A DNA stretch of 63,571 nucleotides, counting the filler, from Hausera hauseri (taxonomy: Eukaryota): assembly GCA_046269625.1 (NCBI GenBank). It is 9 parts of 9 records of this genome, joined end to end, with 100 filler letters (N's around TTAATTAATTAA, not from the genome) between each part and the next. Parts side by side here need not be neighbours in the genome. Positions count along the whole stretch, not along the records: positions 50,437 to 55,623 come from JBJURY010313164.1; 8 more parts are not named here. One strand, 5' to 3'. Each line of letters opens with the position of its first letter. Positions within the stretch are counted from its first letter, which is position 1. The translations under genes were made by a program, and so were the position numbers. The notes under the pieces are model-generated. The model was not told where the DNA came from, searched no databases, and saw nothing but the letters and a program-made list of their open reading frames with translations. This document shows, in pieces, positions 16,533 to 63,571 of the stretch.

Positions 16533-19500
16533 CGTTTGATCGTTCGTTCGTTCGTTCGGTTGTTCGTTTGTTCTTTCGTTTGTTCTTTCGTTCGTTCGTT
16601 CGTTGGTTCGTTCCTTCGACCAATCGTTCGTTCGTTCGTTCGGTTGCTCTTTCGTTCCTTCGTTCGTCCCTTCGATCGATCGTTCGTTTATTCGTTCGTT
16701 CGTCCGTTAGTTCCTTCGTTCGTTGGTTCGATCGTTCGTTCTATCGCTCGTTCATTCGGACGTTTGTTCGTCCGTTCGTTCGTTCACTCGTTGGTTCTTT
16801 CGTTCTATCGTTCGTTCGTTCATTTGGTCGTTCGTTAAATTTTACGTTCGCTCGTTCCATTATTCTTTCGTTCGTACGTTCATTCATTCGTTTGTTCCTT
16901 CGTGCGTTTGTTCGTTTGTTCATTCTTTCGTTCTATCGCTCGTTCGTTAGTTTCTTCGTTCCTTCTTTCGATACTTCCATCGTTCGTACTTCCGTTCGTT
17001 TGCTCGTTCGTTCGTTCGTTCTTTCTTCCTTTCGTTCGCTCGTTCGTCCGTTCGTTCATTCGTTCGTTTGTTCAGTCGTTCGTTCTATTGCTAATTCGTT
17101 CGGACGTTCGCTCGTTCGTTCACTTGTTCGATCTTTCGTTCGTTCCTTCGTCTTCACGTTCGCTCGTTCGATTATTCTTTCATTAGTAAGTTCGTTCGTT
17201 TGCTTGTTCGTTCGTTCGTTTCTTCGTTCGTTCTTTCGTTCCTTCGTTCGTTCTATCGTTTGTTCGTTCGTTCGCTCGTTTGTTCATTCGTTCGTTCTTT
17301 CGTTCCTTCGTTAGTTCGCTCGTTCGTTCGTTCGTTCTTTTTTTCTTTCGTTCGTTCGTTCGTTCGTTCTTCGTTTGTTCGTACTTTCGTTCGTTCGCTC
17401 GTTCGTTCTCTTTTTCTTTCTTTCGTTAGTTCGCTCGTTCGATCGTTCGTTCTTTCTTTTGTTCGGTCGTTTGTTCGGTCGTTCGTTCCTTATTTCGTTC
17501 GTTCTTTCGTTCTTTCGTCCGTCTGAATATTCGTTCGTTCATTCACTCGTTCGTTCGTGCTTTTGTTCGTTCATTCGTTCGTTTCTCCGTTCTTTCGTTC
17601 GTTTGTTCTTTTGTTCGTTATTTCGTTTGTTCTTTCGTTCCTTCCTTCATTCGTTCGTTCATTCCTTCGCTCTTTTGTTCCTTCTTACGTTCGTTTTTTC
17701 GTTCTTTCGTCGGTCTGAATGTTCGTTCATTCCTTCGTTCGTTCTCTCGTTCGTTCGTTTGTTCGATCTTCATTTCGTTCGTTCGTTCGTTCGTTCCTTC
17801 GTTCGTTTTTTCTTTCGCTCGTTCTTTATTTGGTTTGATAGTTCGTTTGCTCGTTCTTTGGTTGGTTGGTTGGTTTGTTCGTCCGTTCGTTCGTTCGGAC
17901 CTTCGTTCTTTCATCCGTTCTTTCGTTCGATCGTTCTACCGTTCGTACGTTCTTTGGTTCATTCTTTCGTTCGTTGGTTCTTTCTTTCGTTCTTCCGTTC
18001 GTCCGTTCGTTTATTCCTTCGTTCCTTCGTTCGTTCGTTTTATCTTTCGTTCATTCGATCGTTCGGTCGATCCTCCGTTCTTTCGTTCGTTCCTTCCCTT
18101 CTTCGTTTGTTCGTTCGTTCGGTCCTTCGTTCGTTCGTCCGGTCCTTAGTTTTTCCGTTCGTTCGATCGTTCGTCCCTTCGTTCGTACCTTCGTTCTTCC
18201 CCTTCATCGATTATTCGTTCGATCGTACGTTCGTTCCTTGTTTCATTCGTTCGTTCGTTTGTTCTATAGATTGTTCTTTCTTTCGATTGTTCTTTCGTTC
18301 CTTCTTTCGTTCGTTCGTTCTCCTGTTCGCGCCTTTTTTCGCTCATTCCTTCGATCTTTCGTCCGTTTGTTCATTTGTTCGTCCTTTCGTTCGTTCTTTC
18401 GTTCGATCATTTGTTTTTTCATTCTTTCCTTAGTTCCTCCGTTCGTTCTTTTGTTCGTTCTTTCTTTTGTTCTTTCTTTCTTTCGTTCTTTCGTTTGATC
18501 GTTCGTTTGTTCGTTCTTTCTTTCATTCGTTCGTTCGTTCCTTCTTTCGTTCTTTCGTTCGTTCTTTGTTTCTTTCGGTCTTTAGTCCCTTCTTTCTATC
18601 GTTCGTTCATTCGTTCCTTCGTTCTTTCATTTACTTATTCTTTCGTTTTTTCGTCAGTGCGTTCGTTCGTTCGTTCATTTGTTACTTCGTTCTTTCTTTG
18701 ATTAGTTCGTTCGTTCATTCGTTCATTCGTTCCTTCGTTGGATCCTTGTATAGTTCCTTCGTTCTTCCGTTCGTCCTTTCTTTCGTTCGTTCATCCGTTC
18801 ATTCGTTCCTTCGTTCGTTCTTTCGTTCGATCCTTATATCGTTCTTCTTTCTTTCGTTCGTTCTTTCCTTCCTTCTTTCTTTCTTTCTTTCATTAGTTCT
18901 TTCGTTCGGTTTATCTTTTGTTCGTTCGATTTTTCTCTCGTTCGTACGTTCGTTTGTCCGCTTGCTCGTTCGATATTTCGTTCTTTAATTCCTTCTTTCT
19001 TTCGATCGTTCGTTCGATCGTTCTTTCTTTTTATCGATCGTTCCATCGTTCGGTCTTTCGTCTGTCTTTGATTATTTCGTTGGTTTGTTGGTTCGTTCGT
19101 TTGTTTGTTCGTTCTATCTTCGTTAATTCGTTCGTACTTTCATTCTTTCGTTCATTCGTTTGTCTTTCCTTCTTTCTTTTGTTTGTTCGTTCGTTCTTTG
19201 GTTCAATCGTTCGTTCTTTCCCTCGTTTCTTTTACTATTCGTTCGTTAGGTCGTTCCTTTGTTCGTTTCTTCGTTCGTCCGTTCGTTCGTTCGTTCCTTC
19301 GATTTTTCGTTCGCTCGTTCGTTCTTTCGTTCTTTCCTTCGTTGTTTCGTTCGTTAATTCGTTTGTTCGTTCGTTGTTTCGTTCGCTCATTCGTTCGTTT
19401 GTTATTTCTTAGCTTCGTACGTTCGTTCGCTCGTTCGTTCTTTCGTGCATCCGTTCGTTCCTTCGTTCTTTCGTTTGCCCGTTCGTTCTTTCTTTCGTTC

Positions 19501-22500
19501 GTATATCCTTTCGTTCATTGGTTTCTTCGTTCGTACGTTCGTTCCTTCGTTCCTTCATTCGCTTATTCGTTAGTTCGTTCAGTTGTTTGTTCGTTCGTTC
19601 GTTTTTCTTTTGTCCTTTAATTCGTTCGTTTGTTCTTTCATTCGTTCGTTTGTACATTCGTTTGTTCTTTCGTTCGTTCGCTCGGTCGATAGTTCTTTCG
19701 ATCGTTCGTACGTTCGTTCTATTGTTTTTTCGTTCGCTGTTTCTATTGTTCTTTCGTTCGTTCGTTTGTTCGTTCGTTCGTTAGTTCGTTCTTTTGTTTG
19801 TTCATTCGTTACTTCGTTCTTTCGTTCGTTAATTCGTTTATTCTTTCGTTCTTTCGTTCCTTCGTTCGTTCTTTTGCTTGTTCGTTCGTGCGTTCGATTT
19901 TTCTTTTGTTCGTTTGATAGTGCGTTCTTTCGTTCGTCCCTGAGTTCATTAGTCCGTTCCTTCGTTCTGTCGTTCGTTCTTTCGTTCGTTCATTCGTTCT
20001 TTCTATCGTTCGTTCGTTGGTTCGTTCTATTTTTCGCTCATTCATTTGTTCTTCCGTTCGGTCTTTCGTTCTTTCATTTATTCGTTCTTTCGTTCCTTCT
20101 ATCGTTCGTTCGTTCGTTGGTTCATTCTTTCTTTTAATTGCTTGTACATTCGTTATTTCTTTCGTTCGTTCGTCCTTTCGTTTGTTTGTTCTTTGTTCCT
20201 TCGTTCGTTGTTTTTTCTTTCTTTCGTTCCTTCGTTCCTTCGCTCGTTCGTTCGTTCATTCGTTCTTTCGTTCGTTATTTCGTTTTTTTCTTCTTTCTTT
20301 TGTTTTTTCGTTCGTTCATTCTTTCGTACATTTGCATGTACGTTCGTTATTTCGTTCGTCAGTTCGTCCTTTCCTTTGTTTATTCTTTCTTTCTTTCATT
20401 CGTTCCTTCGCTCAATCGTTCCTTCCTTCGTTTTTTCCTTCGCCCTTTCGTTCGTTCGTTCATTCTTTCGTTCGTTCGTTCGATCGTTCTTTCGTTGTGT
20501 CCTTCGTTCGTTTGTTCGGTCGCTCTTTCTTTTTTTCTTTCGTTCGTTCTTTCGATCGCTCGTTTGTGTCTTCGTTCGTTCGTTGTTTCGTTCGTTCGTT
20601 TTTTCGTTCCCTCATTCATTCATTCTTTCGTTCGATCTTTCGTTCGTTTGCTTGTTCTTTCGTTCGTTTACTCGTTCTTCCCTTCATCCTCTCGTTCGTT
20701 CGTTCTTTCCTTCGTTATTTCGTTCCTTCGATCGTTCATTCTTTTGTTCAATCGTTCTTTCCTTCGTTCTTTCGTTCGTTTGTTCATTCCTTTGTTTGTT
20801 TCTTCGTTCGTTCGTTATTTTTCTCGTTCGTTTATACTTTCGTTCTTTTGTTCGATTGTTCGTTCATTCTTTCGTTCGTTCGTTCGATCGTTCTTTCGTT
20901 GTATCCTTCGTTCGTTTGTTCGGTCGCTCTTTCTTTCTTTCGTTCGATTCTTCGTTCCTTCGATTGCTCGTTTGTGTCTTCGTTCGTTCGATCGTTTATT
21001 CTTTTGTTCATTCGTTCTTTCATTCGTTCATTCATTCTTTCGTTTGTTTGTTTGTTCGTTTGTTCGTTCGTAGGTTCATTCTTTTTTTCATTTCTTCGTT
21101 GGCTCGGTCGTTCGTTCATTCGTTCGTTCGTTCTTTCTTTCGTTCCTTTGTTCGGTCGCTCTTTCTTTTCCTTCGTTCGTTCGTTCTTTCGATCGCTCGT
21201 TTGTGTCTTCGTTCGTTCGCTGGTTCGTTCGTTCGTTTTTTCGTTCCCTCATTCATTCATTCTCTCGTTCGATCTTTCGTTTGTTTGTTTGTTTTTTCGT
21301 TCGTTCGTTCGTTCTTTCTTTTTTTCATTCGTTCCTTCGCTCGTTCGTTCGTTCATTTGTTCCTTCCTTTGTTTTTTCGTTACTTCTTTCGTTCGATCCT
21401 TTGTTCGTTCCTTCGTTCGTTATTTCATTCTTTTTTTCTTTCCTTTTTTCTTTCTTTCGTTCATTCTTTCGTTCATTTGCTTGTACTTTCGTTATTTCGT
21501 TCGTCAGTTCGTTTTTTCCTTTGTTTTTTCTTTCGTTCGTTCGTTCGTTCTTTCTTTCTTTCATTCGTTCCTTCGCTCGTTCGTTCGTTCATTCGTTCCT
21601 TCCTTCGTTTTTTCGTTCATTCTTTTGTACGTACGTTCCTTAGTTCGTTGGTTCTTTCGTTTGTTCGTTTTTTCGTTCCTTTGTTCGGTCGCTCTTTGGT
21701 TCGTTATTTCCTTCGTTATTTTGTTCTTTCTTTCTTTCGTTCCTTTGTTCTTTTGTTCGTTCGTTCGGTCGGTCCTTCTTTTGTTCTTTCAATGGTCCTT
21801 TCGTTCGTTCTTTCGTTCGTTTGTTTTTTCGTTTGTTCGTTCGTTCGTTCATTCGTTCGTTATTTTCTTTCGTTCTCTCTTTCGCTTTTTCATTCTTTTG
21901 TTCTATTTTCATTTTCTTCGTTTGTTCCTTCGTACTTTCTTTCGTTCGTTCCTTTTTTCTTTCAATCGTTCGTTATTTTCTTTCCTTCGTTCTTTCGTTT
22001 GTTCATTTTTTCTTTCGATTTTTCTTTTGCTTATTTGTTCGTTCGTACTTTCTTTCGTTCGGTCTTTCGTTCTTTCTTTCTTTCGTTGTTTCGTTATTTC
22101 TTTCTTTCGTTCCTTCGTTCGTTCTTTCCTTCTTTCGTTCGTTCGTTTGTGAGTTCGTTCCTTCTTTTGTTCTTTCGTTCGTCTGTTCGTTAGTTATTTC
22201 GTTCGTTCGTTCTTTTGTTCGGTAGTGAATTCGTTCTCTCGTTCGTTATTTCATTCCTTCTTTCGTTCGTTCGATCTTTCTTTCGTTCGTTCGTTCGTTC
22301 GTTCGTTAGTTCTTTCTTTCGATCGTTCATTCTTTCGTTCTTTCGTTTGTTTTTTCTTTCGCCTGTTTGTCCATGCGTTCGTTTTTTTGTTCATTACTAC
22401 AATCGTTCTTTCCTTCTTTCATTCGTTCGTTCGTCCTTTCCTTCGTTCTATCGTTCCTTCTTTCGTTCTTTCGTTCGTCAGTTCGTTCGTTATTGCGGTC

Positions 22501-25500
22501 GTTCGTTCGATCGTTCTTTTGTTCGTTCGTGAATTCGTTCTTTCGGTCGTTTGTTCCTTCGTTCATTCGTTCTTTCTTTCGTTCTTTCGTTCATTCATTT
22601 CGTTCGTACGTTATTTCTTTCTTTCCTTCGTTCGTTCGTTCTCTCGTTCTTTCCTTCTTTCTTTTTTGCTTTCGTTCGTTCGTTCGTTCGTTCGATCCTT
22701 CGTTATTTCTTTCGTTCCTTCGTTTGTTCGTTCGTTCTTTCGTTCGTTCATTCGGTCTTTCTTTCGTTCGTTCGTTCTTCCTTTCGTTCTTTCGTTCGAT
22801 CGTTCGTTCAAACGTTCGTGCGTTCTTTCATTCTTTCGTTCTTTCGTTCTTTCATTCTTTCATTCTTTCCTTCGTTCGTTCGTTCCTTTCTTCTTTCGTT
22901 CATTCGTACTTTCGTGCCTTGGTTGATTGGTTCATTCGGGCCTTTGTTCACTGGTTTATTCGTTCATTCGTTCGCTCATTCGTTCTTTCGTTCCTTATAT
23001 CTTTCGTACTTTCGTTCGTTTTTTCTTTCTTTGGATTTTTGTTTTGTTCGTTTGTTCATTCGTACTTTCTTTCGTTCCTTCATTCATTTCTTTGTTCGTT
23101 CTTTCGATCTTTCTTTCATTCGTTTGTTTATTCGTTCGATCCTTCGTTCGTTCTTTCCTTCGTTCGTTCGTTTGTACGCGCTTTCGTTCATTCGTTCTTC
23201 CGTTCGTTCGGTGGTTCATTCGTTCTTTCCTTCGTTCGTTCTTTTGTTCTGTCTTTCTATCTTTGGTTCTTTCGTTCCTCCTTTTTTTCTTTTGTCCGTT
23301 CGTTTGTTTGTTTCTCCTTTCGTCCTTTCGTGCGTCAGTTCGATCGTTCTTCCGTGGTTCGTTCGTTCTTTCTTTCTTTCATTTCTTCGTTCCTTTATTC
23401 GTTGGTTCCTTCGTTCTTTCGTACCTTGCTTCATTCGTTCATTAGTTCATTTGTTCATTCTTTCGTTCTTTCGTTCATTCTTTCGTTCTTTCGTTTATTC
23501 CTTCTTTCTTTGGATTTTTCTTTTGTTCGTTTGTTCATTCGTACTTTCTTTCATTCCTTCTTTCAGTCGTTCGTTCATTCGTTCGTTCTTTCGTTTGTTT
23601 TTTCTTTCGCTTGTTCGTCCATACGTTCGTTCTTTCGTTCATTAGTACGTTCGAACTTTCATTCGTTCTTTCATTCGTTTGTTCGTTCCTTCGTTCATTC
23701 TTTCGTTCGTTCATTCTTTCATTCGTTCGTTCGTTGATTCGTTCCTTCTTTCTTTCATCCGTTCGTTCTTTCGTTCTATCGATCATTCGCTCCTTCTTTC
23801 ATTTGTTCTTTCTTTCGTTCTCTCCTTCGTTCATTCGTTCGTTCTTTCTTTCTTTTGTTTGTTCGTTTATTCTTTCATTGGTTCGTTCATTCTACCATTG
23901 GTTCTTTCGTTCATTCACTCCTTCGTCCGTTCTTTCGTTCCTTCGTTTGTTCTATAGTTCAATTGTTCTTTCGTTCGTTCCTTCGTTCTTTCATTCGTCC
24001 TTTCGTTAGTTCTTTCCTTCATCCATTATTTCGTTCCTTCCTCGTTCGTTCTTTCTTTCGTTCTTTCATCTGTTTGTTCGTTCGTTCGTTTGTTCGTTCT
24101 TCCTTTCGTACGTTCGTTCTATAGTTCATTCCTTCCTTTTTTCGTCCGTTCGTTCTTTCGTGCCTTTGTTCATTCTTTCGTTCGTTCTTTCTTTCGTTCG
24201 TTCTTTCCTTCTTTCGTTCTGTCGTTTGCTTGTTCGTTATTTTCGTTCGGTCCGTCCTTCTTTATTTCGTTCGCTCGTTCGTAATTTCTTTCGTTCGTTC
24301 CTTCTTTCTTTCGTTTGTCCGTTCGTTCTTTCGTCTGCTCGTTTATTCATTCGTTCTATGGATCGTTCTTTCTTTCGTTTGTCCGTTCGTTCATTCGTTT
24401 GTTTGTTTTATCTTTCCTTCATTTGTTCGTTCGTTCGTTCGTTCATTCGATTTTTCATTCGTTCGTCCTTTCGATCTTTCGTTCGTTGTTTTATTCTTTC
24501 TTTCTTCCGTTCCTTCGTTCATTCGCTTTTCCGTTCTTTCTTTCGTTCGTTCTTTCGTTCTTTTGTTCTTTCCTTCGTTCTTTCTTTCGTTCGCTTTTTC
24601 TTTCGATCGTTCATTCGTTCATTCGTTCTTCCTTTCCTTCGTTCGTTCGTTCGATCTTTCTTTCTTTCTTTTGTTTGTTCGTCCGTTCTTTCCTTCGATA
24701 CTTTGTTCTTTCGTTCGTTCTTTCTTTCGTTCGTTCGCTGGTTCGCTCTTTCTTTCGTTCCTTCATTCGTCCGTTCATTTGTTCCGTCGTTCGTTCGTTC
24801 TTTCGGTCGTTCTTTCGGTCTTTCGTTCGTTCCTTCATTCTTTCGTTCGTCCGTTCGTTCTATCATTCGTTTGTTCGTTCGTTCTATCGATCGTTCTTTC
24901 TTTCTTTCATTCATCCGTTTTTTTCCTTCGTTCTTTCGTTCTTTCGATCGTTCATTCCTTTGTTCGTTCTTTCTTTCGTTCGTTCGTTCGTTCTTTCGGT
25001 CATCCGTTCTTCGTTCTTTCGTTTGATCTTTTTTTTATTTTTTCGTTTGTTCATTCTTTCGTTCTTTTTTTGTTCGGTCCTTCATTATTTCGATCGTTCG
25101 TTCGTTCGTTCGTTCTTTCGTTCGTTCGTATGTTCATACGTTCTTCCGTTCGTTCGTTCGTTCTTTCTTTCTTTCTTCCTTATTTTCGTGTGTTCGTTCG
25201 CTCTATCGTGCGTTCATTTATTCGTTCGATCGTTCATTCGTTCGTTCTTTCATTTGTTCGTTCTTCCTTTCGATATTTCGTTCGTTCTTTTATTCTTTCG
25301 CTCTTCCTTTCCTTCTTTCTTTCGTTCGTTCGTTCGTTCTTTCGGTCATCCGTTCTTCGTTCTTTCGTTTCTTCGTTCTTGCGTCCATCCGTTGGATCGT
25401 CCGTTCATTCGTTGGTGCGTATTTTCATTCGTTTTTTTCCGTTCTTTTGTTCGATCTTTCGTTTATTTTTTTGTTCTTTCGTTTGTTCAATGGTTCGATC

Positions 25501-48641: not shown

Positions 48642-50436
48642 ATTTCTAAATAAAATAAATTAACATTTGTTATAGATTAACTTCATAAATAAAACAAATT
48701 AAAATAAGTGTAAAATACAATATATATTAATACTTTAAACTAAATTGCTACTTCTACGGCAGTGATGATGGTGGTTGTGGTGATGGTGGTCTAAGGGGGA
48801 TTATAAATATTGGTCACGTAATGCCACCACAAATAAAACACATGGAAGCGTAGATAGAAACCGAGATTCCGCGATTGACCGACGATATTTTGACCGGACA
48901 TGTGTTTGACGTACAGTACCTATGTGAGCTGTCGGAAATGAGAATAATGAGCCGGCGAGAGTACAATGAATTAATAGTCCGGTATCTTTTGGCGAAACGC
49001 ATAGAAGACTAAATGAAACAAAAGCAACGACGGATTAAACTTTTCATAGAATTCGTATTTTCTGTTTCATTTTGTATTGTAATGAAAAAGTTGATTGACC
49101 GTATTTAACCACACATTTGTATTATAATTATATATAATTTTCTATGTATTTGTTTTTATGCATCAATGTAATGTATTTCACGTTCTCGCTACATTGCAGT
49201 GGGATTACAACATGTCCCACTTGACTTAACTCATTGCTCTGTATCACTCATTCGACGATCTCAGGAGTCACCTTTACAATCTCGATCGACCTTTACATAA
49301 TGATGCTTGGTACTCGTCGGGTGAAAATATGCTATTGCGTGCAGAGGCCAATTGGAGGGCACGTGACCCTATGTACGCCATATGAAGCATATTGTTGGTG
49401 ATATGAATGCATTATATAGGTGCAATTTTCTACACGTATCAGAAATTGGCGGATGGCTATGCGTTGTGAGATAATAAGCGTCAAGTACGGTTTCTAGATG
49501 ATCTTATAAAATGTTATCAACTTTTCCCAATGTGACAGCCAGCGAAGAAGATTTGCTTGAAGCAACATTGCAACATGATTACTTCCGATGGTCTCGATCA
49601 TTCTCCTATCGAATTACCTAATCCCTATGGATTGTGTAATCGGATTACATTTGAACTGCTGAGTTGCAGATGTGGTGATCTTATATTACAAGAAGAAGAC
49701 GATGACGATAAAGAAATATAATAAAAGTTTAATACAAACGTTGTTTTTACTACTAAACAAGACGGTTAAAATGAGGTAGGTGGGGCAATAGTGGTGTCCG
49801 AAAACTAGGTCAGACATAAAATGCTTGCTATAGTCAAATAGGTGTGGAAATGCGGTTGTCCGGAAGTGGGTCACAGAAAAACATTTCTCCTACCCAAGTC
49901 ATCTTACTGAGTCCAAATATGTAGGTGTCAGAAACTAGGTCAGTACAAAAAATTTTTCCGACTCAACCCATTGCGTCAATAAAATAAAAGAAAATTATAC
50001 AATAAAACAAAACAATATATAAATAAATTAAATAAATTAAATTTGAAATAAAATTAATAAACTAAATAAAATTATAATTCAAAGACCAAAACTTACGTGG
50101 TCCATTTTTCGGCGATAACGAATTCGTAGAAATGACGATAAGCTAAGTGTCGTGATATTATATACGTGGTAGTGTGTGCCTTGGTAATACTTTACTGACA
50201 AGCACTGTTGACTAGGAAAACTGACTTTAAGTTGAAAAACCAACATCTAACCAGATGTCCATTATTTGGAGAATGCCCTTTACACTAATACTACTAGAAT
50301 AAATCATGAGAAAAACAAAAACCCGTGCGCAACGACNNNNNNNNNNNNNNNNNNNNNNNNNNNNNNNNNNNNNNNNNNNNTTAATTAATTAANNNNNNNN
50401 NNNNNNNNNNNNNNNNNNNNNNNNNNNNNNNNNNNN

Positions 50437-52800
50437 TCAATGTGCCGCTGAAAAGTTTGTGCGGCATTCCGCAAACCGAATGGCATAAACAGGTATTCAT
50501 AGAGGCCGAAAGGAATAGTGACGGCAGTTTTTCTATGTCTTCAAATGCCACCGGTATTTGATGGTATGCTTTAGCTAAATTAATGTTCGAATAGATGGTG
50601 GTTGAATTAAGAAGATGCAAGATATTCTTGATGAGTGATAAAGGGTATGCATCCATGATTGTCAAGTTGTTCAACTGCCGGTAGTCACCGCATTGTCTAA
50701 AAGTACCGTCCTTTTTTGTACAACGTGTAACGGTGATTACTAAGGAGATTTGGAATGTCGTACTATGCCAGAACGTTCTAGTTCGAGACATTCGGCTTCT
50801 ACGGCCTGTCTACGACGAGGTGACAGAGGCCGTACCTTTTGGAGCATTGTACGTTGATGCTGTGTAACTATATGGTGTAAAGTACTGTTTGCGGGAGTAA
50901 ACGTGCAGTCTTTTTTAAGTACGCGTGGACATAATGTGTTGACGAATTTCTGTAAAGTATTAGGGAACTTTGAAAGATTTGGTGAAAGTGGTGAAACGGC
51001 TTGAGTAGTAGCGGATGCAATTTGTGAGTTGTTAGGTGATGTGCAGTCAAGTAGTATTTTGTGTAAGATGGTCGAATTGAAAATGGTGTTGGATGAAGTA
51101 TTTTCGTCGAATAAATTAACGTTGGTGGCAGTACCATAATTATCGACATCAAACTTCAATTGTATATCAACATTATTATTTAAAAATTTACAAATGGAAT
51201 TATTGTTATAAAAAATCGAATTATTCATTAACTTATTTAAGATTGACCTCCGCATTCCGGTCGACTGCGCGGTAGTCAAAATAATATTGACAGGTCCAGA
51301 AATGTCGCCAGTGGTGCCGTTCCTCAAACATCGCTGAGTTCAGTCAACCAGTAAATTATAGTGTGAGAGAAAGTTGGATCCTAGAATTGCCGTCTGGACG
51401 TTAGCGATTGTGAACATCCAGAGGAAGGGTAAAGGAAAATTTGGTAAAGTGAAAGATAATTTAGCCATGCCAGAAATGTGCAGCGGTTGATCTGAAGCAG
51501 TGTATAAGGACTTAAGTCTGAATGGAGAATTTTGTATAGTGAAGGTTTGTAGTAATAAAAAATCGCTGCACATGTATCAATGAGAAAGTCAACAGACTGC
51601 GTTGTAGGAGCAGTGATTAAAGCCTTTAGAGCAAAAACAGCAAAAGAGACATGTCGGCGTTCAGAAAGTGAAGTAGTGCCTTTGCCAGAGTTTGCCGTGA
51701 CTTCTGGCGGCAAACAGTTTTTTTGAAAGGGTGAATTAGGACGACTATTAGGAAGAAAGGCAGTACGTCCGTCGTTCGTATTTGATTTAAAGGTGCAGCC
51801 TAGAATATATTTACGAGCTTTGTTTTTGAACCTTGCATGGTAGATGCAAACAAAGGTGTCCGAGGAAAAATTCTTGTTATAAAATTTGCACTGTGGGCAG
51901 CACTTCTAAGCATTAGTGTTGAATTTGCTGTGGTATAGCAGATGGACGAACACGCAGGCGAAGGTGAGCGGTTTCTAGACGTAGAAAGAACGCGGTCAGC
52001 GGCAAAACCCCCTCGCCGGGACAGAGACATTTCGTGTAATTTATTATTGATATTGTTGATTGTTGCATGCAATGCAATATTTTCAGCACGTAGCTGATTA
52101 AGCTGTTGTTCTATGGATGTATTATCATTAGCAGCAGCTGCTGCTGAAACAACTGGTGGAGAATTTACGTGTGGGACATCGTGTGTCCTATCGGCTAATT
52201 CGGCCAATTTCTCAAGCTGTGTGGAGTCTTCTACCACGTAAGTAGGGCCCACATTTGGATAAGTAGCGCATCAAGGAAATAGTGGCGCAGTAGATCTGGG
52301 TTGTGTTACTTAGTGACGCCGAGAGTATGTAGATGTGCTAAAATGTACGTAAGAATTCGGATGGCCGTTGGGTGCCTATAACGTTGTCGTGGAAGAAACG
52401 ATGTATGATCGTGTCCATGGAAGGTTCTGTGATCTTAAGAACTGCGTTAGAAAGTTAGGAATATGGGTCTGGAAGTTCAAAGATTTCTATGATGTTGCGA
52501 ATGCGGGTTTTGATGTTATTAGGGAGTAAGAAGAGGAGATTATGTGCTTTAGTTAAAGAGTCAGTGATGTTATTTGCCTGTAGCCATAGCTGATGAAATT
52601 GCAAACGAAGTTTTGCTGGAACCTTGGTTGTCAATAAAAAATTCGGTGCAGTTGGGGAAAGGATTGGAAGAGGTAATGGATGGAAGGTTGCTAGTAGGAG
52701 TAGAAATGGGTTTTTGGAGCAATATAACAGGTATTAATTTCGTGGTAGTTTTATCCGTGGTGTCTATGATTGGTGAGTTTATGCCACCACAAATACGGAG
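50437..52800 (-). mobile_element. Ty3/Gypsy element H (gag, protease, 5' part of RT), decayed
   Basis: gag IGTQRPSEFL and LEKLAELADR; protease FLIDTCA and ILGSNFL; RT KKDGTFRQCGDYRQLN, YPL, YHQIPVA. Confidence 0.9.
51684..51723 (-). promoter_or_regulatory. -1 ribosomal frameshift signal (AAAAAAC plus pseudoknot), element H
   Basis: AAAAAAC tg TTTGCCG CCAGA agtca CGGCAAA c TCTGG at the gag/pro boundary. Confidence 0.7.
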
Positions 52801-53149
52801 ATGTATGTGGAGGCAAGTGTGGCTTGTAAAAGATGGTAGGGTTCCGTTGAGAGTTATGATAGCGCCGTTATGGGTGAGGTAAAATCGGAAGAGCAAAGTA
52901 AAAAAGAAATGAAGGTACGAAAATTTGCAATATGGAAATGTGGTGTAGTGATTGTGTAAATGTGTATTATTGAGGAAAAGGAGAATAGAGAGGGGGAAGT
53001 AGTATGCCTGGGGCGTGGTGTGGGGCCGACGCGAGCGGCTTCGTCTGACCAACCGGCGTAGGGTTGACGGACGGGACCTCCGCCTCGGCGAGGCGGGCCC
53101 CAAATTGCACGGTGACCGAATCTCCCCTCAAAATTGCGGCCATGTCTTC

Positions 53150-53343
53150 AGCTCAATAATGTATTTGATGCACAGACAATTAATGTATCGATCCGCTATG
53201 TCCATTGATTTAGGCTCGTCCAAACGCTGACTGGCCAAATGGCAATTCACAGCATTGTAATAAATACGACCTTTCAGTGCATAGAAGTCAATCAGAGTCA
53301 GTGTGTGATACAGCTAGATTTTGAAATAAAGCCATAATGAGGT
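53150..53343 (-). pseudogene. NAA15/NAA16 (NatA auxiliary subunit) fragment
   Basis: HTLTLIDFYALKGRIYYNA...LDEPKSMDIADRYINCLCIKY resembles TPTLIEL...K.KIYKHAG...DEAQ.LDTADR.IN.KC.KY. Confidence 0.75.
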
Positions 53344-53401
53344 CTATGGAAAGGTAAAGTTATTAAAAAGATAAAATTATTATCGTCAACGATAAAATTA
53401 C

Positions 53402-54150
53402 CGAGTCGTTCAACTTTGCTTTCGACCGACACTAAATCGGATTTTATTGTCTGTGCCTGACTGATGAGGGTAACATATTCCTCCGCATATTTGGCGATAC
53501 TGGCTTCAAGTTGCTTAATGAGATTCTCGGTTCCTTCCGCTTTTTTCTTATCCGCTTGGGCAGCTTCAGTTAACTCGGTTAATTCACTTCTAAGCAGTTG
53601 AACTCGTTTTAAAATACCAGCATAATTGACTTGGGCAATCACCCATTTCACCATCGGTCCGCATGCATTACTAGCTTTGTTAATCTTTTCAAAATTGCAA
53701 TCCGCGTTGCTCAAATATTTTTCTTTCATTGTGTCACGTATGGGATCAGTAATGTCGTCAGTATTGAAATTCAATATATTCTGAACAAAATTATCTTTAA
53801 CTATGGACTTGAGAACCGATGTCTCTTCCGCAGTTTTTTCTCCCAATAAAAAGCATATCGCTTCTGCAGCCATCTTTACCAACTGTGGAGAATTTTTCAT
53901 AGCTCTAATTTCCTGAACGTCTTTCTTGCGAATATTCTATATAGCGTGCTTGGCATCATTAACGGATGGCTCAACTTGCTCTAGCTCCATATTAACAGCT
54001 TGTTTCTTTTCATTAATAAATTGCTCTTGTTTAACCATTTCTTTTTGTAATTCCTGATTAGTTGCCTTACGTTGTTCTGTCTCTTGCTGCTCTTGAACTA
54101 TCTGTTTCAGCTTTTGGTTGGCAGCATTGTTCATTCTTTACAATTCTTCC
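53402..54150 (-). pseudogene. DYNC1H1: Cytoplasmic dynein heavy chain fragment (stalk CC1-MTBD-CC2)
   Basis: AANQKLK, VEP.V.DAK.A, VKMA.EAIC.LLGE, KYLSN, KAS.ACGPMVKW..AQ.NYA, LISQAQ.IK. One stop; intronless. Confidence 0.92.
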
Positions 54151-54173
54151 CAAATCGTCCAAATCAAACCCAA

Positions 54174-54893
54174 AACAACGGATGGTATAAGGCACCTCCA
54201 TCTCAAATTGAAACTGGCAATACTTGAAGTATTCAATAGAACAATTCTACCCGGTGCCAATAAATTTTGGATTTCGTTTCTATTTTCCATAATTTCGCAA
54301 AAAGACTTTCTCAACTCACGGTAATAAGTACAGGTTTTATAAAACGACTTAACAATGTCTAAATTACACCCTTTATCCGTACAATTTAGTCCTTTTAAAG
54401 GTATGGACTTCAATTTAGGGGATATAGCATAGTATTCCTGATATTTTTCTTCGTAGTTCTTTATTCTTTCTGCCTCACTGAAACTGTGGCGTATTATATA
54501 CTTAATATTTAGTTCTTTTTCATAATTAACCGTCTCCAATTTGTGCATTTCTTCGTTAGAAATGAGCTGTGTAGCAGGTTTAAAACTCGCTGAACTCGCA
54601 ATCCATTCAGACAGTAAACAGTTACGGAAAAATCGATTTAACCAATGCTTTTCTATATCTTGAACGTTGATTTTCGGTTTCGTCTGATAAATTGTATTGA
54701 CATCGACAAGTGTTTTCGGCAAATCATCCGAAAACGATTTAATAATCACATCATCATGCAATAATCTAACGGGAACAAAATCCGGATCACGAAAATCTGA
54801 CGTTGATATCGAATGTATGTGGTTTATTTTCATCATGTTCGGAAAAATCATAAGAACTTTAACTTTATACTTATGATTTCCGGACGTTTGGCG
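54174..54893 (-). pseudogene. Inserted host fragment whose 3' half is SKI2/SKIV2L helicase-like
   Basis: LNIKYIIRHSFSE...C...C..DI...FY...LLAPGRIVLL resembles SKI2 VEDMMKRSFSE...L..GRVV. The 5' half is unassigned. Confidence 0.6.
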
Positions 54894-55339
54894 AATCAAA
54901 CCCAACATCGACCGTGGATTGCCAACGACAATATCGTGATCACTAACATTCTACAAATGAACGTGTTGATCCAACAGAAAATTTATGGCTTTGTCAACGT
55001 TAACTAAACAGTGAATACGCATTTTGCCCCTTGTCGGCTTTCGGAGTTTTTTGCAAGCTAATATTTCTAACAGTTTAATCAACTTCTTACCATCATGTAA
55101 ATCCAAATAGAGATCGTCAATAGTTTGTGATATTTTAATCAAATGGGAATTCATCCCTTTCGTAAATGTTTTTTCTGAACCATTTCGCGTTCCTCGGCTA
55201 GTGCTTTAATTCGAGACCTTTCGTACAATTTTGCAATGCTATCTCCTCCCTCAAATTCTTCTTCATCGCTAAAATAGACCCCATTGGCATTGCCATTTGC
55301 GTCCCATTTCATATTTTGCTGCATACTCTGAACTTCCAT
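54894..55339 (-). pseudogene. beta-spectrin N-terminus and CH1 domain fragment
   Basis: [26 protein letters not shown]...DLY.DL.DGK.LIKLLE.L...[19 protein letters not shown]...DIV.GN...LGLI. Frameshift and stop. Confidence 0.92.
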
Positions 55340-55723
55340 TGTGTTTGGAAAAATGTATCTCAAACGAAAATCAGAGATATTGATAAACTGATAAAATACA
55401 GACAATCAAATCACAGAAACAATGTCAGTAATGTAAATGTTATTAATGCGATATAACAAGCAAAAAACTGGTGTCGCTTTAATTTCATGTATTGATGTAT
55501 TCATATTCAGATTTAGCAGGTAATTTCGGCTTATTTGAAAGGTTCTATCTAGTCGACTCCGCTTAACTTCATGTAGTCGTAAAGTTGAGTGTGACGCTAA
55601 CCGAAATGTGAAATTATGCTGTANNNNNNNNNNNNNNNNNNNNNNNNNNNNNNNNNNNNNNNNNNNNTTAATTAATTAANNNNNNNNNNNNNNNNNNNNN
55701 NNNNNNNNNNNNNNNNNNNNNNN

Positions 55724-60289: not shown

Positions 60290-61200
60290 TAATTTTTAAG
60301 TTTTATTAAGCTGATAAGCCTTAGTGAGCATGTTTCATAACTCTTTGGAACACAAATTATCAAAAAATGCTTATTTTCAAAATGGATTATTTTGAGAAAG
60401 ACTTTAAGAGCACTGGTTTTAAGTAAATGTCTAAGCAAAATAACTGATTTGCTATACGCTTCAGGGAAATATGATGGTAAAAGGAGACTGTACAAAACAC
60501 TGACAGTGTAAGTTGTTTTCATTAGGGGAGCAAAATAGAGATATTTCTGAAGTGTTTCGGAGTTTTCTTTGTAAATAGCTTCCATAAGATTCGTGTTAGC
60601 ATGATGGTTGGTGGTAAAAAATTCAGTAAATAATTTATAGACCACCGGAGTTTTTCACTGCTGACCTGTAAGGACAAATCTCCGATATTGATAAGTAATT
60701 CCATACATTTTTTGTTATTTGATATAGTAACACCTGAAAGAGTTACTTCACTCTCTTCAGTATGAATTACATCTGACGGATCAATCCTCGTAGGAGGGAT
60801 AGCCCCATTATATATTTCAAGCTGCTGTATTGTTCGATAGTTATCTTTCTCTTCGATTATTAAATCTGGACCTTTAGAGATCTCAAAATAATTTCCGTCT
60901 CTGTATAGATCTTTCAAATGCGCTTCGACCTTTTTACGAAGGTTAATAAAAAATTCGTTAGAATGAACTTCAGTTTCAGATTGATGAGAATTACGACGAC
61001 CAGATGAATTATAAAGTCACTGTGACAATACGGCATTTTCTGTAGGTCTTTCTCGACAAGCCGGGATTTTTCCGCTGATAAAGGTACCTAATATCACATT
61101 CTCTGATAAATTTACAAAGAATTTGGATAAGATTCACACGTTTGTTCACAGATTCCTCCATTTCTGATGAAACTTCAAAATAATTTTCTAAAACATCATC
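60290..61200 (-). pseudogene. USP9X/fat facets-like deubiquitinase fragment
   Basis: [17 protein letters not shown]; HSNE; EVTLSGVTIS...IGDL....KLR....LLNFLPP; VLYSLLLP. These follow the order of USP9X motifs EYINECD, HTND, LPGVIMS, LMKLMPP, VYALLMP. Confidence 0.72.
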
Positions 61201-63253
61201 GAGTCGATTCCGTTTTTCGACTTCGGCAACAAGTTTATCAGTACTGAACTGGCCTCTGACAACCATTATGAGTTGCTTAATAACGTCATCGGAACCATTG
61301 ACATCGAGCAAGCCACCAACGACAACTGGTAGTCGCTGGGGGTTGACCTTTTGAATGTATATTTTAATGTACTTCTGCAGTTGATGTCGGTATAGATAGA
61401 GTACCAAATCGTAAACAAAATTTAATCTAACACAGACAATTATGAGGAATGGTTGATCGGTCAATTTAGCCGCCTTCGAAAAATTTGTAACTCTCTGCAA
61501 ATCCTCTCAAACTCCTTAATCTGTCCGGTCTTACAGGCCGATTGAATGTGCTTAAAATGCACTTCTGGATCTTGGCTAATGTTAGCGATTGAGCTGAGGA
61601 AATAAAACAGGCCCTCGTAACATTTTCATGATTTGAAAATTTTAATGATGTTAGTCGTACCAAGTTGTTCGTGATATTTACTGGCAATCTGAACGCAGAC
61701 CTGCAGATTCTGTCTGATGTTTGCGTGAAGCATGGCTTTGATATACTCAAGAGAATCGTCAACTGACAAACAGTGGAAATAGTTAAGAAGGAACTCCGGA
61801 TTCAACAGATGAGTATGGACGACATAATCGGTATAATGTTCAAGTGCCCGTTGCAATAAACCAGTTTTTTTACATATTTGTGCAATGTGAGCTTTATCGT
61901 AATGCATGAATATTTTGTTGCCCGTAAGGGCATCGGCAACTTGCGGCGCATGCACAAGATTCATTTCGAGCAGTCGCATTTGTAAATGAGCTTCCGATGG
62001 TCTGTTATTTTTTTGTGCATCCAACAGGAATGAAGTGCACTGCTGAGCCAGACCCTGTTCCATGAAAATATCGCCAATCTGATTGAGATCGTTGTTGAGT
62101 GGTTCTTCGTCCTGAACGAGCATTTGTGCAGATTGTAGACCCTGGTCAGGGTTTGTTCTTATCAGATTTCTCAGCAGGTATACGTAATCAGGTGTGAATC
62201 CAACATTTTTCGAGTACAGAATAATCTTCTGGAACTGTCCCATTTCTGCAAAACACTGAACAACTTTCTGAGGCACATTTGCTCTTAAATAGACGGACAA
62301 TATCAATGTGGGGTTATTCTGTTTAACAATGTCACCAAATTCTTCGGAACATTCACGTTTATCTGTCTTTAACCACTTTTCAAGTAACTGTTTCTTGCCT
62401 TGTAAAAGAACTGATCACCAGAGTTTCAGACATTCGTATTTGTTAAGTTGTTCTTGGTCTAGTAGAATGCCGAAATACTGAAGTAAATTGGAGGCTTTGA
62501 GTAGGCACTTGCTGAAATCGGTGAATCGTTTTAGCAGTTCTCAATGTTCCTTTGGGTGCACTTGCTGCTACTTTGCAGCCTCGGAATACTGACCGATACT
62601 GACTAGGTTGCTGAATTTGTGAACGAAAAGGTCTTCTGCACAGTTTGTTTCTGATAGTCACTCGTAAAGCCAAGTCGGGCATGTTTAGAGTATTTGTAAT
62701 GTAAGAAACGATCGTGTCTTCCTCAATCGAAACAAATAAAACCTGACCCTTTCGGTTCACTCCGATAAATCCAGCGGTGGCTTCGTACGGTGATGTGACA
62801 AATATTGTTTCACTGCTGATGCGATATACATAAATTCATGTTCCGATCTCGATATTGTTCATGTAAATGTAACCATATTTGGTGATTAGAAATACCATGC
62901 TGTATTTGTTGGAAGTCTGCATAGCTACTGGAAAATCAGCTGCTGCTTCCGGTGGAAACATAACATCAACGCTGTACAACTGCATAGCATCAACAACTCT
63001 ACTCTGCTGTGCCGAAATACCGATTAAAGTTAACAATTTCGTACTGGGATCACAACGACAATTAATGATTTGACAACCGTTTAACGACGAATGCCGATAG
63101 AATATTTTCATAGGACTTGAATCATCTTCCATTAACCAAAGAAACACTGCATTTTCCGTAACTATAGTAATTGTATTCACCGAAATCCATTTATAATAAT
63201 AACGTCTACATATAATAACGTCTTCCGTTAAATTGTGAGATTTCATTTTGCTC
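61201..63253 (-). pseudogene. CLTC: Clathrin heavy chain fragment (propeller to proximal repeats), intronless, with internal deletions
   Basis: [78 protein letters not shown]. Confidence 0.96.
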
Positions 63254-63571
63254 TGACACCAATGTAGAGTCCTGTGTATCATCGACATTAAGTAGAATAG
63301 TAAAATCCAAATGACAAGAATTAGCTCCAACATTTTATTCAAGATTCAAAAAATTCTATAATTAATCATTAAATCATTATCTATTTGCAAAATATACATG
63401 AGACTGTTGATCCTCTGTTAAATCATGAAAGTACACCAAATAAAAGAAAAAGTACACCAATAAAAGAAAAAACCGTCAATTTTCATACTTTCATTAGAAT
63501 TTACTGCATAAAAGAACCTTTCCGATATTTGCACTAAACGATTCTTGATAAAAAGTATCCATATGCCTGAC
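63252..63571 (-). mobile_element. Candidate 5' LTR end and primer-binding site (tRNA-Leu type)
   Basis: The minus strand reads AATAAA (about 63334-63339) ... CTCTACA T TGGTGTCAGA. CA is at 63264-63263 and the PBS at 63261-63252. Confidence 0.55.

Follow-up and report, generated by a model that had tools for sequence, protein, structure and literature searches.

The 720-nt SKI2-like insert that splits a beta-spectrin retrocopy in this Hausera hauseri contig is, as judged by comparison with a paralog and relatives, one contiguous segment of SKI2 that has been closed end to start and opened at a 12-nt sequence. The same 12-mer flanks the insert as a direct repeat. Since the insert opens exactly at the four codons of the 12-mer, the repeat most likely reflects a microhomology that spectrin and SKI2 each had of their own, and not a target-site duplication. 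The initial annotation of this DNA had described a SKI2-like insert nested in spectrin; the assignment to SKI2 stands, but the insert departs from the order of SKI2, and its circular permutation, which was absent from that description, requires a third joint. The contig analysed, which carries no N along its full length, occupies positions 50437-55623 of the window (the whole 63,571-nt stretch of DNA that was analysed), and the assembly searched comprises 869 Mb in 909,086 contigs. The features are collected in Table 1.

Table 1. Features of the LTR-borne cargo and its carrier, listed in the reading direction of the minus strand (window coordinates).
Feature	Position	Strand	Basis
5' part of spectrin cargo, ATG at 55339-55337	55247..55434	-	common to siblings; probably of spectrin origin, the parent contig stopping short
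Spliced beta-spectrin fragment, first calponin-homology domain	54906..55246	-	92% identical to parent gene
Left 12-mer (LGLI), spectrin to SKI2 part B joint	54894..54905	-	common to five sibling contigs
SKI2 part B, 393 nt, downstream half in intact SKI2	54501..54893	-	paralog and relatives
Closing joint, end of B to start of A (54501/54500)	54495..54509	-	short homology at both matching paralog places
SKI2 part A, 327 nt, upstream half in intact SKI2	54174..54500	-	paralog and relatives
Right 12-mer, SKI2 part A to spectrin joint	54162..54173	-	sequence comparison
Eight further parent-spectrin bases (W, T and two bases)	54154..54161	-	match to parent
Cytoplasmic dynein heavy-chain stalk fragment with stops	53403..54152	-	89-92% identical to sibling cargo
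NAA15-like NatA auxiliary subunit fragment, common last cargo piece in family	53131..53313	-	Pfam and siblings
Conserved GC-rich 3' end of LTR	53019..53132	-	its end is the inverted match of the LTR start
Decayed internal region of carrier	50437..52950	-	reverse transcriptase by weak Pfam match

On the minus strand TTGGGTTTGATT lies at 54894-54905 and again at 54162-54173, with no third site in the window; the 720 nt between the copies are as first described, and the repeat spacing of 732 nt, or 244 codons, is in frame. Since some 12-mer repeat turns up in 3.9% of 2000 shuffles of the 756-nt stretch, the repeat by itself is weak evidence. Both copies, though, are placed at breakpoints. At the first the spectrin match ends; behind the second come 8 bases (54161-54154) identical to parent spectrin, a match with a chance of about 1e-5 by composition. 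The right-end 20-mer has two matches in the 869 Mb at one mismatch or fewer, namely the parent beta-spectrin gene and this site, and its reversed control has none. Where spectrin had been said to resume as LGLI-WTI, the match to spectrin extends over the W codon, the T codon and just two bases of the third, and W-T is accounted for by neither the dynein copies nor SKI2. Spectrin picks up exactly at its break, in support of the out-and-back template switch that had been proposed. The reported switch to dynein soon afterwards is borne out by dynein similarity from 54151, as is the lack of poly(A): there is no A or T run longer than 5, and no poly(A) or element end at the insert, in 54101-54960. 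Both 12-mer joints are bridged without differences by contigs of run X1, the right joint by a 439-nt contig; X1, the one public run listed as containing this sequence and with no RNA run beside it, has filtered records and may be the source sample, so it is not independent.

The permuted order is seen on alignment to the assembly's intronless SKI2 paralog (C439027), found by a protein search of the same genome as a 1079-codon frame with human SKI2W as its best PDB match. Along this paralog the second half of the insert is matched ahead of the first half, so that the insert reads B-then-A. Among all 244 rotations of the 732-nt unit, the best against the paralog is the one at codon 135 (window 54501/54500), with a score of 472 versus 269 unrotated and 244 residues aligned against 241. 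Its first 129 columns are gap-free, the 12-mer included, and the four codons of the 12-mer align with four SKI2 codons inside that stretch. The paralog is identical to the unit at 408 of 732 bases and has L-S-I-I at the opening point, not L-G-L-I. A search of 1.84 billion proteins at an E threshold of 0.001 returned three that passed (P0001-P0003), and in one of these, P0002, a single frame runs across the opening point and reads LIPAVVLSVVRQT, which is a match to the insert's end, exactly four residues, and then the insert's start. On these proxies the 12-mer, native to spectrin, is in SKI2 register as well; it is therefore probably native to SKI2, the donor's own copy being read from the register, and microhomology is favoured. 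The insert has no introns and, once rotated, is colinear with the intronless paralog, whereas the ORF ends of P0001-P0003, as seen in the proteins with the DNA unseen, suggest introns inside both A and B in relatives. Alone, the insert has no PDB match and a sub-threshold Pfam match to an MTR4-like stalk only. Compared with one sibling copy (L006), part B carries 4-, 2- and 12-nt deletions, and its other deletions are located at short repeats. An open frame of 270 codons was considered as a sign of selection and rejected, as the 4-nt and 2-nt deletions put part of B out of frame. No other permutation was found in a screen of 92 sequences, many of them overlapping.

The third joint, at which the end of B meets the start of A, keeps the reading frame and falls on a homologous motif. 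Comparing, in the paralog, the 12 bases that precede the start of A with the 12 that precede the end of B gives 8 identical positions out of 12, with a run of 5, and 0.5% of about 187,000 random position pairs match as well, a post hoc figure obtained on the paralog. None of the 16 equivalent cut positions in the paralog offers an AG/GT pair, and P0001 continues in frame past the end of B; judged by these two proxies, the closing joint is probably neither a splice site nor a back-spliced exon-exon junction.

The A-B region of the true SKI2 donor was not found by DNA, protein and pattern searches of the same genome, in which SKI2 matches were confined to the window contig, the intronless paralog, the 5' end of an intron-bearing SKI2 (L040, on C221175), MTR4-like loci and fragments; word-index protein searches and a metagenome scan gave no donor match either. 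In the assembly, part A with the right joint is present as a single copy, and no duplicated donor turned up, nor any orphan SKI2 sequence lying upstream of A or downstream of B. The paralog (L021/L033) stands intact and diverged alongside the intron-bearing L040 and is likely a functional retrogene. At two other loci (L028 and L038) the SKI2 exons are much nearer the conserved animal type and differ in sequence style; these probably come from a second organism in the assembly. Elsewhere a SKI2 fragment is fused behind an ISXO2-like transposase domain (L044:297-1115, Pfam on L044; also L048, L051, L052 and L054), and gene pieces are therefore also joined to a DNA transposon.

The host of the insert is a spliced copy. 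Its parent beta-spectrin gene is present in the assembly (C593, L005), and a 52-nt intron of that gene is missing from the fragment at 55195/55194, as it is in all six siblings displayed at that place. With a 1-nt frameshift in the A run at 55174-55169 and a stop at 54953-54951, the locus is a dead pseudogene that shows no sign of function. The spectrin-to-B joint is common to five sibling contigs (L003, L004, L006, L011 and L012), which also have derived changes in common: the cargo was amplified as one unit. In four of the five, B gives way at 54689 to a sequence that they share and that is importin-5-like in L003; the remaining one ends earlier. In a 7-row tree the five cargo copies form a group separate from the parent, moderately supported (87/86). 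The order of events that the locus had been thought to record can be read only in part, and a search for processed siblings with an empty site found none: L002 and L007 stop short of the joint, and L013 leaves spectrin earlier. A more distant spectrin copy (L019, on C429330), 72% identical to the parent exon, is intron-free and frameshifted and has GC-rich ends.

The whole cargo lies inside an LTR. Of 197 candidates for the GC-rich LTR end, 40 were scored and 30 retrieved, and Pfam run on the upstream frames of six of the 30 (L073, L074, L075, L081, L087 and L097) found host genes in all six. In three loci (L059, L062 and L064) an integrase region and polypurine tract precede the LTR start, which is followed by cargo; the cargo is therefore inside the LTR, and the LTR start in these loci is the inverted match of the LTR end seen in the window. 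With the LTR start on one side, the LTR end on the other and the internal region downstream, the cargo does not replace internal ORFs. On the window contig the LTR end and the reverse transcriptase are both present, the other side being cut off by the contig end; the internal region (50437..52950) presumably holds gag and protease too, judging by position. Across the family the cargo modules are constantly reshuffled. In L058:4900-10000 (C181083) an intact, intron-free dynein heavy-chain frame of more than 5 kb runs directly into the NAA15-like piece and the LTR end, and the cargo identified by Pfam in nine loci (L003, L060, L066, L073, L074, L075, L081, L087 and L097) includes importin-5-like sequence, LIM fused to dynein, RNA polymerase Rpb2, tubulin-like, ABC-2 membrane, PRP8 PROCN, NatA subunit, HEAT-repeat and helicase C pieces. 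At window positions 53019-53000, after the LTR end, there is no TGG-type primer-binding site, and the bases there mirror the polypurine tract, which may point to self-priming or to a misplaced end.

How might such an insert have arisen? The explanation we prefer, and to which we give about an even chance, is that three reverse-transcriptase template switches (out, loop back and return) in a retrotransposon particle made it. Copying the cargo RNA 3' to 5', the enzyme would have left spectrin at the 12-mer for a co-packaged, spliced SKI2 message, copied part A, and then jumped back downstream on SKI2 at a short AT-rich homology. Part B would have been copied next, until the enzyme reached its own entry point on SKI2; there the template would already have been cut by RNase H, and a return to the spectrin RNA at the 12-mer would have been forced, the nascent end matching the 12-mer that remained on that RNA. 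The product would be exactly one turn with one extra copy of the 12-mer and no spectrin lost, and later switches would have swapped the downstream sequence, to dynein here and to importin-5-like sequence in siblings. Consistent with this proposal, short-repeat slips are common in this cargo, the host is spliced and its cargo lies inside LTRs, and the closing joint falls at a short homology. A published study of LTR elements reports switching at microsimilarities (PMC5131818), and the review PMC3187697 describes forced and dynamic copy choice in retroviruses, from which the process may by analogy extend to this locus. Counting against it are the missing donor, a closing joint that X1 leaves unbridged, the single copy of part A with the right joint, the expected rarity of three non-homologous switches in one round, the lack of any second permutation among the 92 sequences screened, and the fact that a circular template yields the same end product.

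A true circle as template would in fact need the fewest events, since the two 12-mer joints would be the reciprocal products of one crossover and B-to-A the closing joint. Either the enzyme went into a putative circular SKI2 RNA of about 750 nt at the 12-mer and made one round of it, or a small circle of DNA, derived from SKI2 cDNA or from an intronless paralog of the kind that exists here, made one crossover into the cargo at the 12-mer. Order flips are a published mark of circular intermediates (PMC7450558), and in the account of PMC4897178 they mark pseudogenes derived from circular RNA, which are without poly(A) and LTR-flanked. Nevertheless, the closing joint lies inside an exon in P0001 with no splice-site pair in the paralog; circles with non-splice joints in coding genes are often judged artefacts, although PMC11244336, which says so, cites some validated ones too; and linear-RNA switching accounts for the rest of the cargo. 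We consider a circle possible but doubtful, and a shade more doubtful the specific version in which the reverse transcriptase of an LTR element used a microhomology to enter a circular host RNA, made one turn and came back to the same base of its first template, RNase H having destroyed the path behind the enzyme so that exactly one round would result. Stepwise assembly, in which spectrin-to-SKI2 and SKI2-to-spectrin chimeras formed separately at one and the same 12-mer hotspot and were joined later through the short homology, or in which the donor held an internal tandem duplication, seems to us unlikely. The left joint does occur without part A in the five sibling contigs, the cargo is prone to reshuffling, and no exact match between the 732-nt unit and 1.9 kb of the spectrin gene is longer than the 12-mer, though this is there by construction; but the assembly holds no free copy of A with the right joint and no donor with a duplication, and four siblings that leave B at one point fit truncation of a longer insert equally well.

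Two further explanations bear on the joints themselves. That the closing joint is an assembly error fusing two loci might be suspected from the 909,086 contigs of the assembly and from run X1, whose sole hole in 54380-54720 is 54489-54501. However, the assembly contig crosses the joint without N, the run contigs that flank the hole end without loose unlike ends, no orphan SKI2 turned up beyond A or B, the join is in frame at a homologous motif, and the bridged, reciprocal 12-mer joints predict just such a closing joint; we regard an error as quite improbable. More improbable again, to the point that we give it very little credence, is a target-site duplication, which the initial annotation had offered beside the template switch and which an endonuclease or integrase would have made on insertion of a 720-nt piece. 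A perfect 12-nt direct repeat with spectrin intact on both sides is what it would leave, but SKI2 would have to have lost 12 nt that happened to equal the duplication, there is no poly(A) or element end, and the swapped order is left unexplained. The repeat of such a duplication would be foreign to the insert, and here the 12-mer occupies, without a gap, four codons of SKI2's own, between those that match the insert's end and those that match its start.

Among known systems, the animal LTR-mediated chimeric retrocopies (Tan et al. 2016, PMC5131818) come close, with partial spliced pieces, several parents per cargo, no poly(A) and amplification by the element; microsimilarity at the joints, a feature of those retrocopies, is probable here. 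In the fly cases presented there, however, cargo replaces internal ORFs, so that its position inside the LTR makes the present family a variant; the 12-base match is twice the median of 6 given in that paper, whose main text does not use the word 'circular' and which is not known to describe a permuted insert returning to its entry point. Pseudogenes derived from circular RNAs (Dong et al. 2016, PMC4897178) have in common with our insert a non-colinear joint, the lack of poly(A) and an LTR neighbourhood, but their joint as reported is a back-spliced exon-exon one, whereas that found here looks intra-exonic and microhomology-based and is nested in the retrocopy of another gene. Duplications through circular DNA (PMC7450558) likewise turn A-B into B-A, with separate closing and opening points at short homologies, although those in that account are large genomic segments with homologies of 1-2 bases, in contrast to a probably spliced 0.7 kb and a 12-base homology left as a direct repeat. 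The insertions and duplications ascribed to retroviral copy choice in PMC3187697 resemble the insert in the RNase H-dependent switching, between or within templates, that may have produced it; those concern retroviruses in culture, and this is a germ-line fossil involving an LTR retrotransposon and two host messages. In a search of the main texts of the open literature, no relevant paper on this combination was found. What sets the insert apart from the retrocopies of Tan et al. is the location in the LTR together with the permuted, loss-free nesting, which is mechanistically informative in a functionally dead locus.

The locus shows that a direct repeat flanking an insert in a retrocopy need not be a target-site duplication but can be the scar of a crossover, and that gene capture by LTR elements, besides fusing segments, can permute one and keep the reading frame. 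Circular permutation is one way in which new protein architectures arise. The retroposition mechanism of circular RNAs is called unknown in PMC4897178, and capture of a circular RNA in one turn, if true, would supply it and would predict that permuted, loss-free inserts flanked by direct repeats recur in the LTR-cargo family. As dozens of cargo-bearing LTRs are present in the genome, the loop-back and circle models can be tested by counting.

Elsewhere in the window, 61009-63345 holds a decayed and apparently intron-free clathrin heavy-chain fragment (Pfam Clathrin), after which coding-like pieces continue down to 59511, upstream of another LTR-type internal region. The gaps at 50337-50436 and 55624-55723 are N runs with a fixed TTAATTAATTAA spacer, and adjacency across them is not evidence of linkage. 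Positions 16540-33008 form a 16.5-kb degenerate tandem array of a 4-base unit with extreme strand skew.
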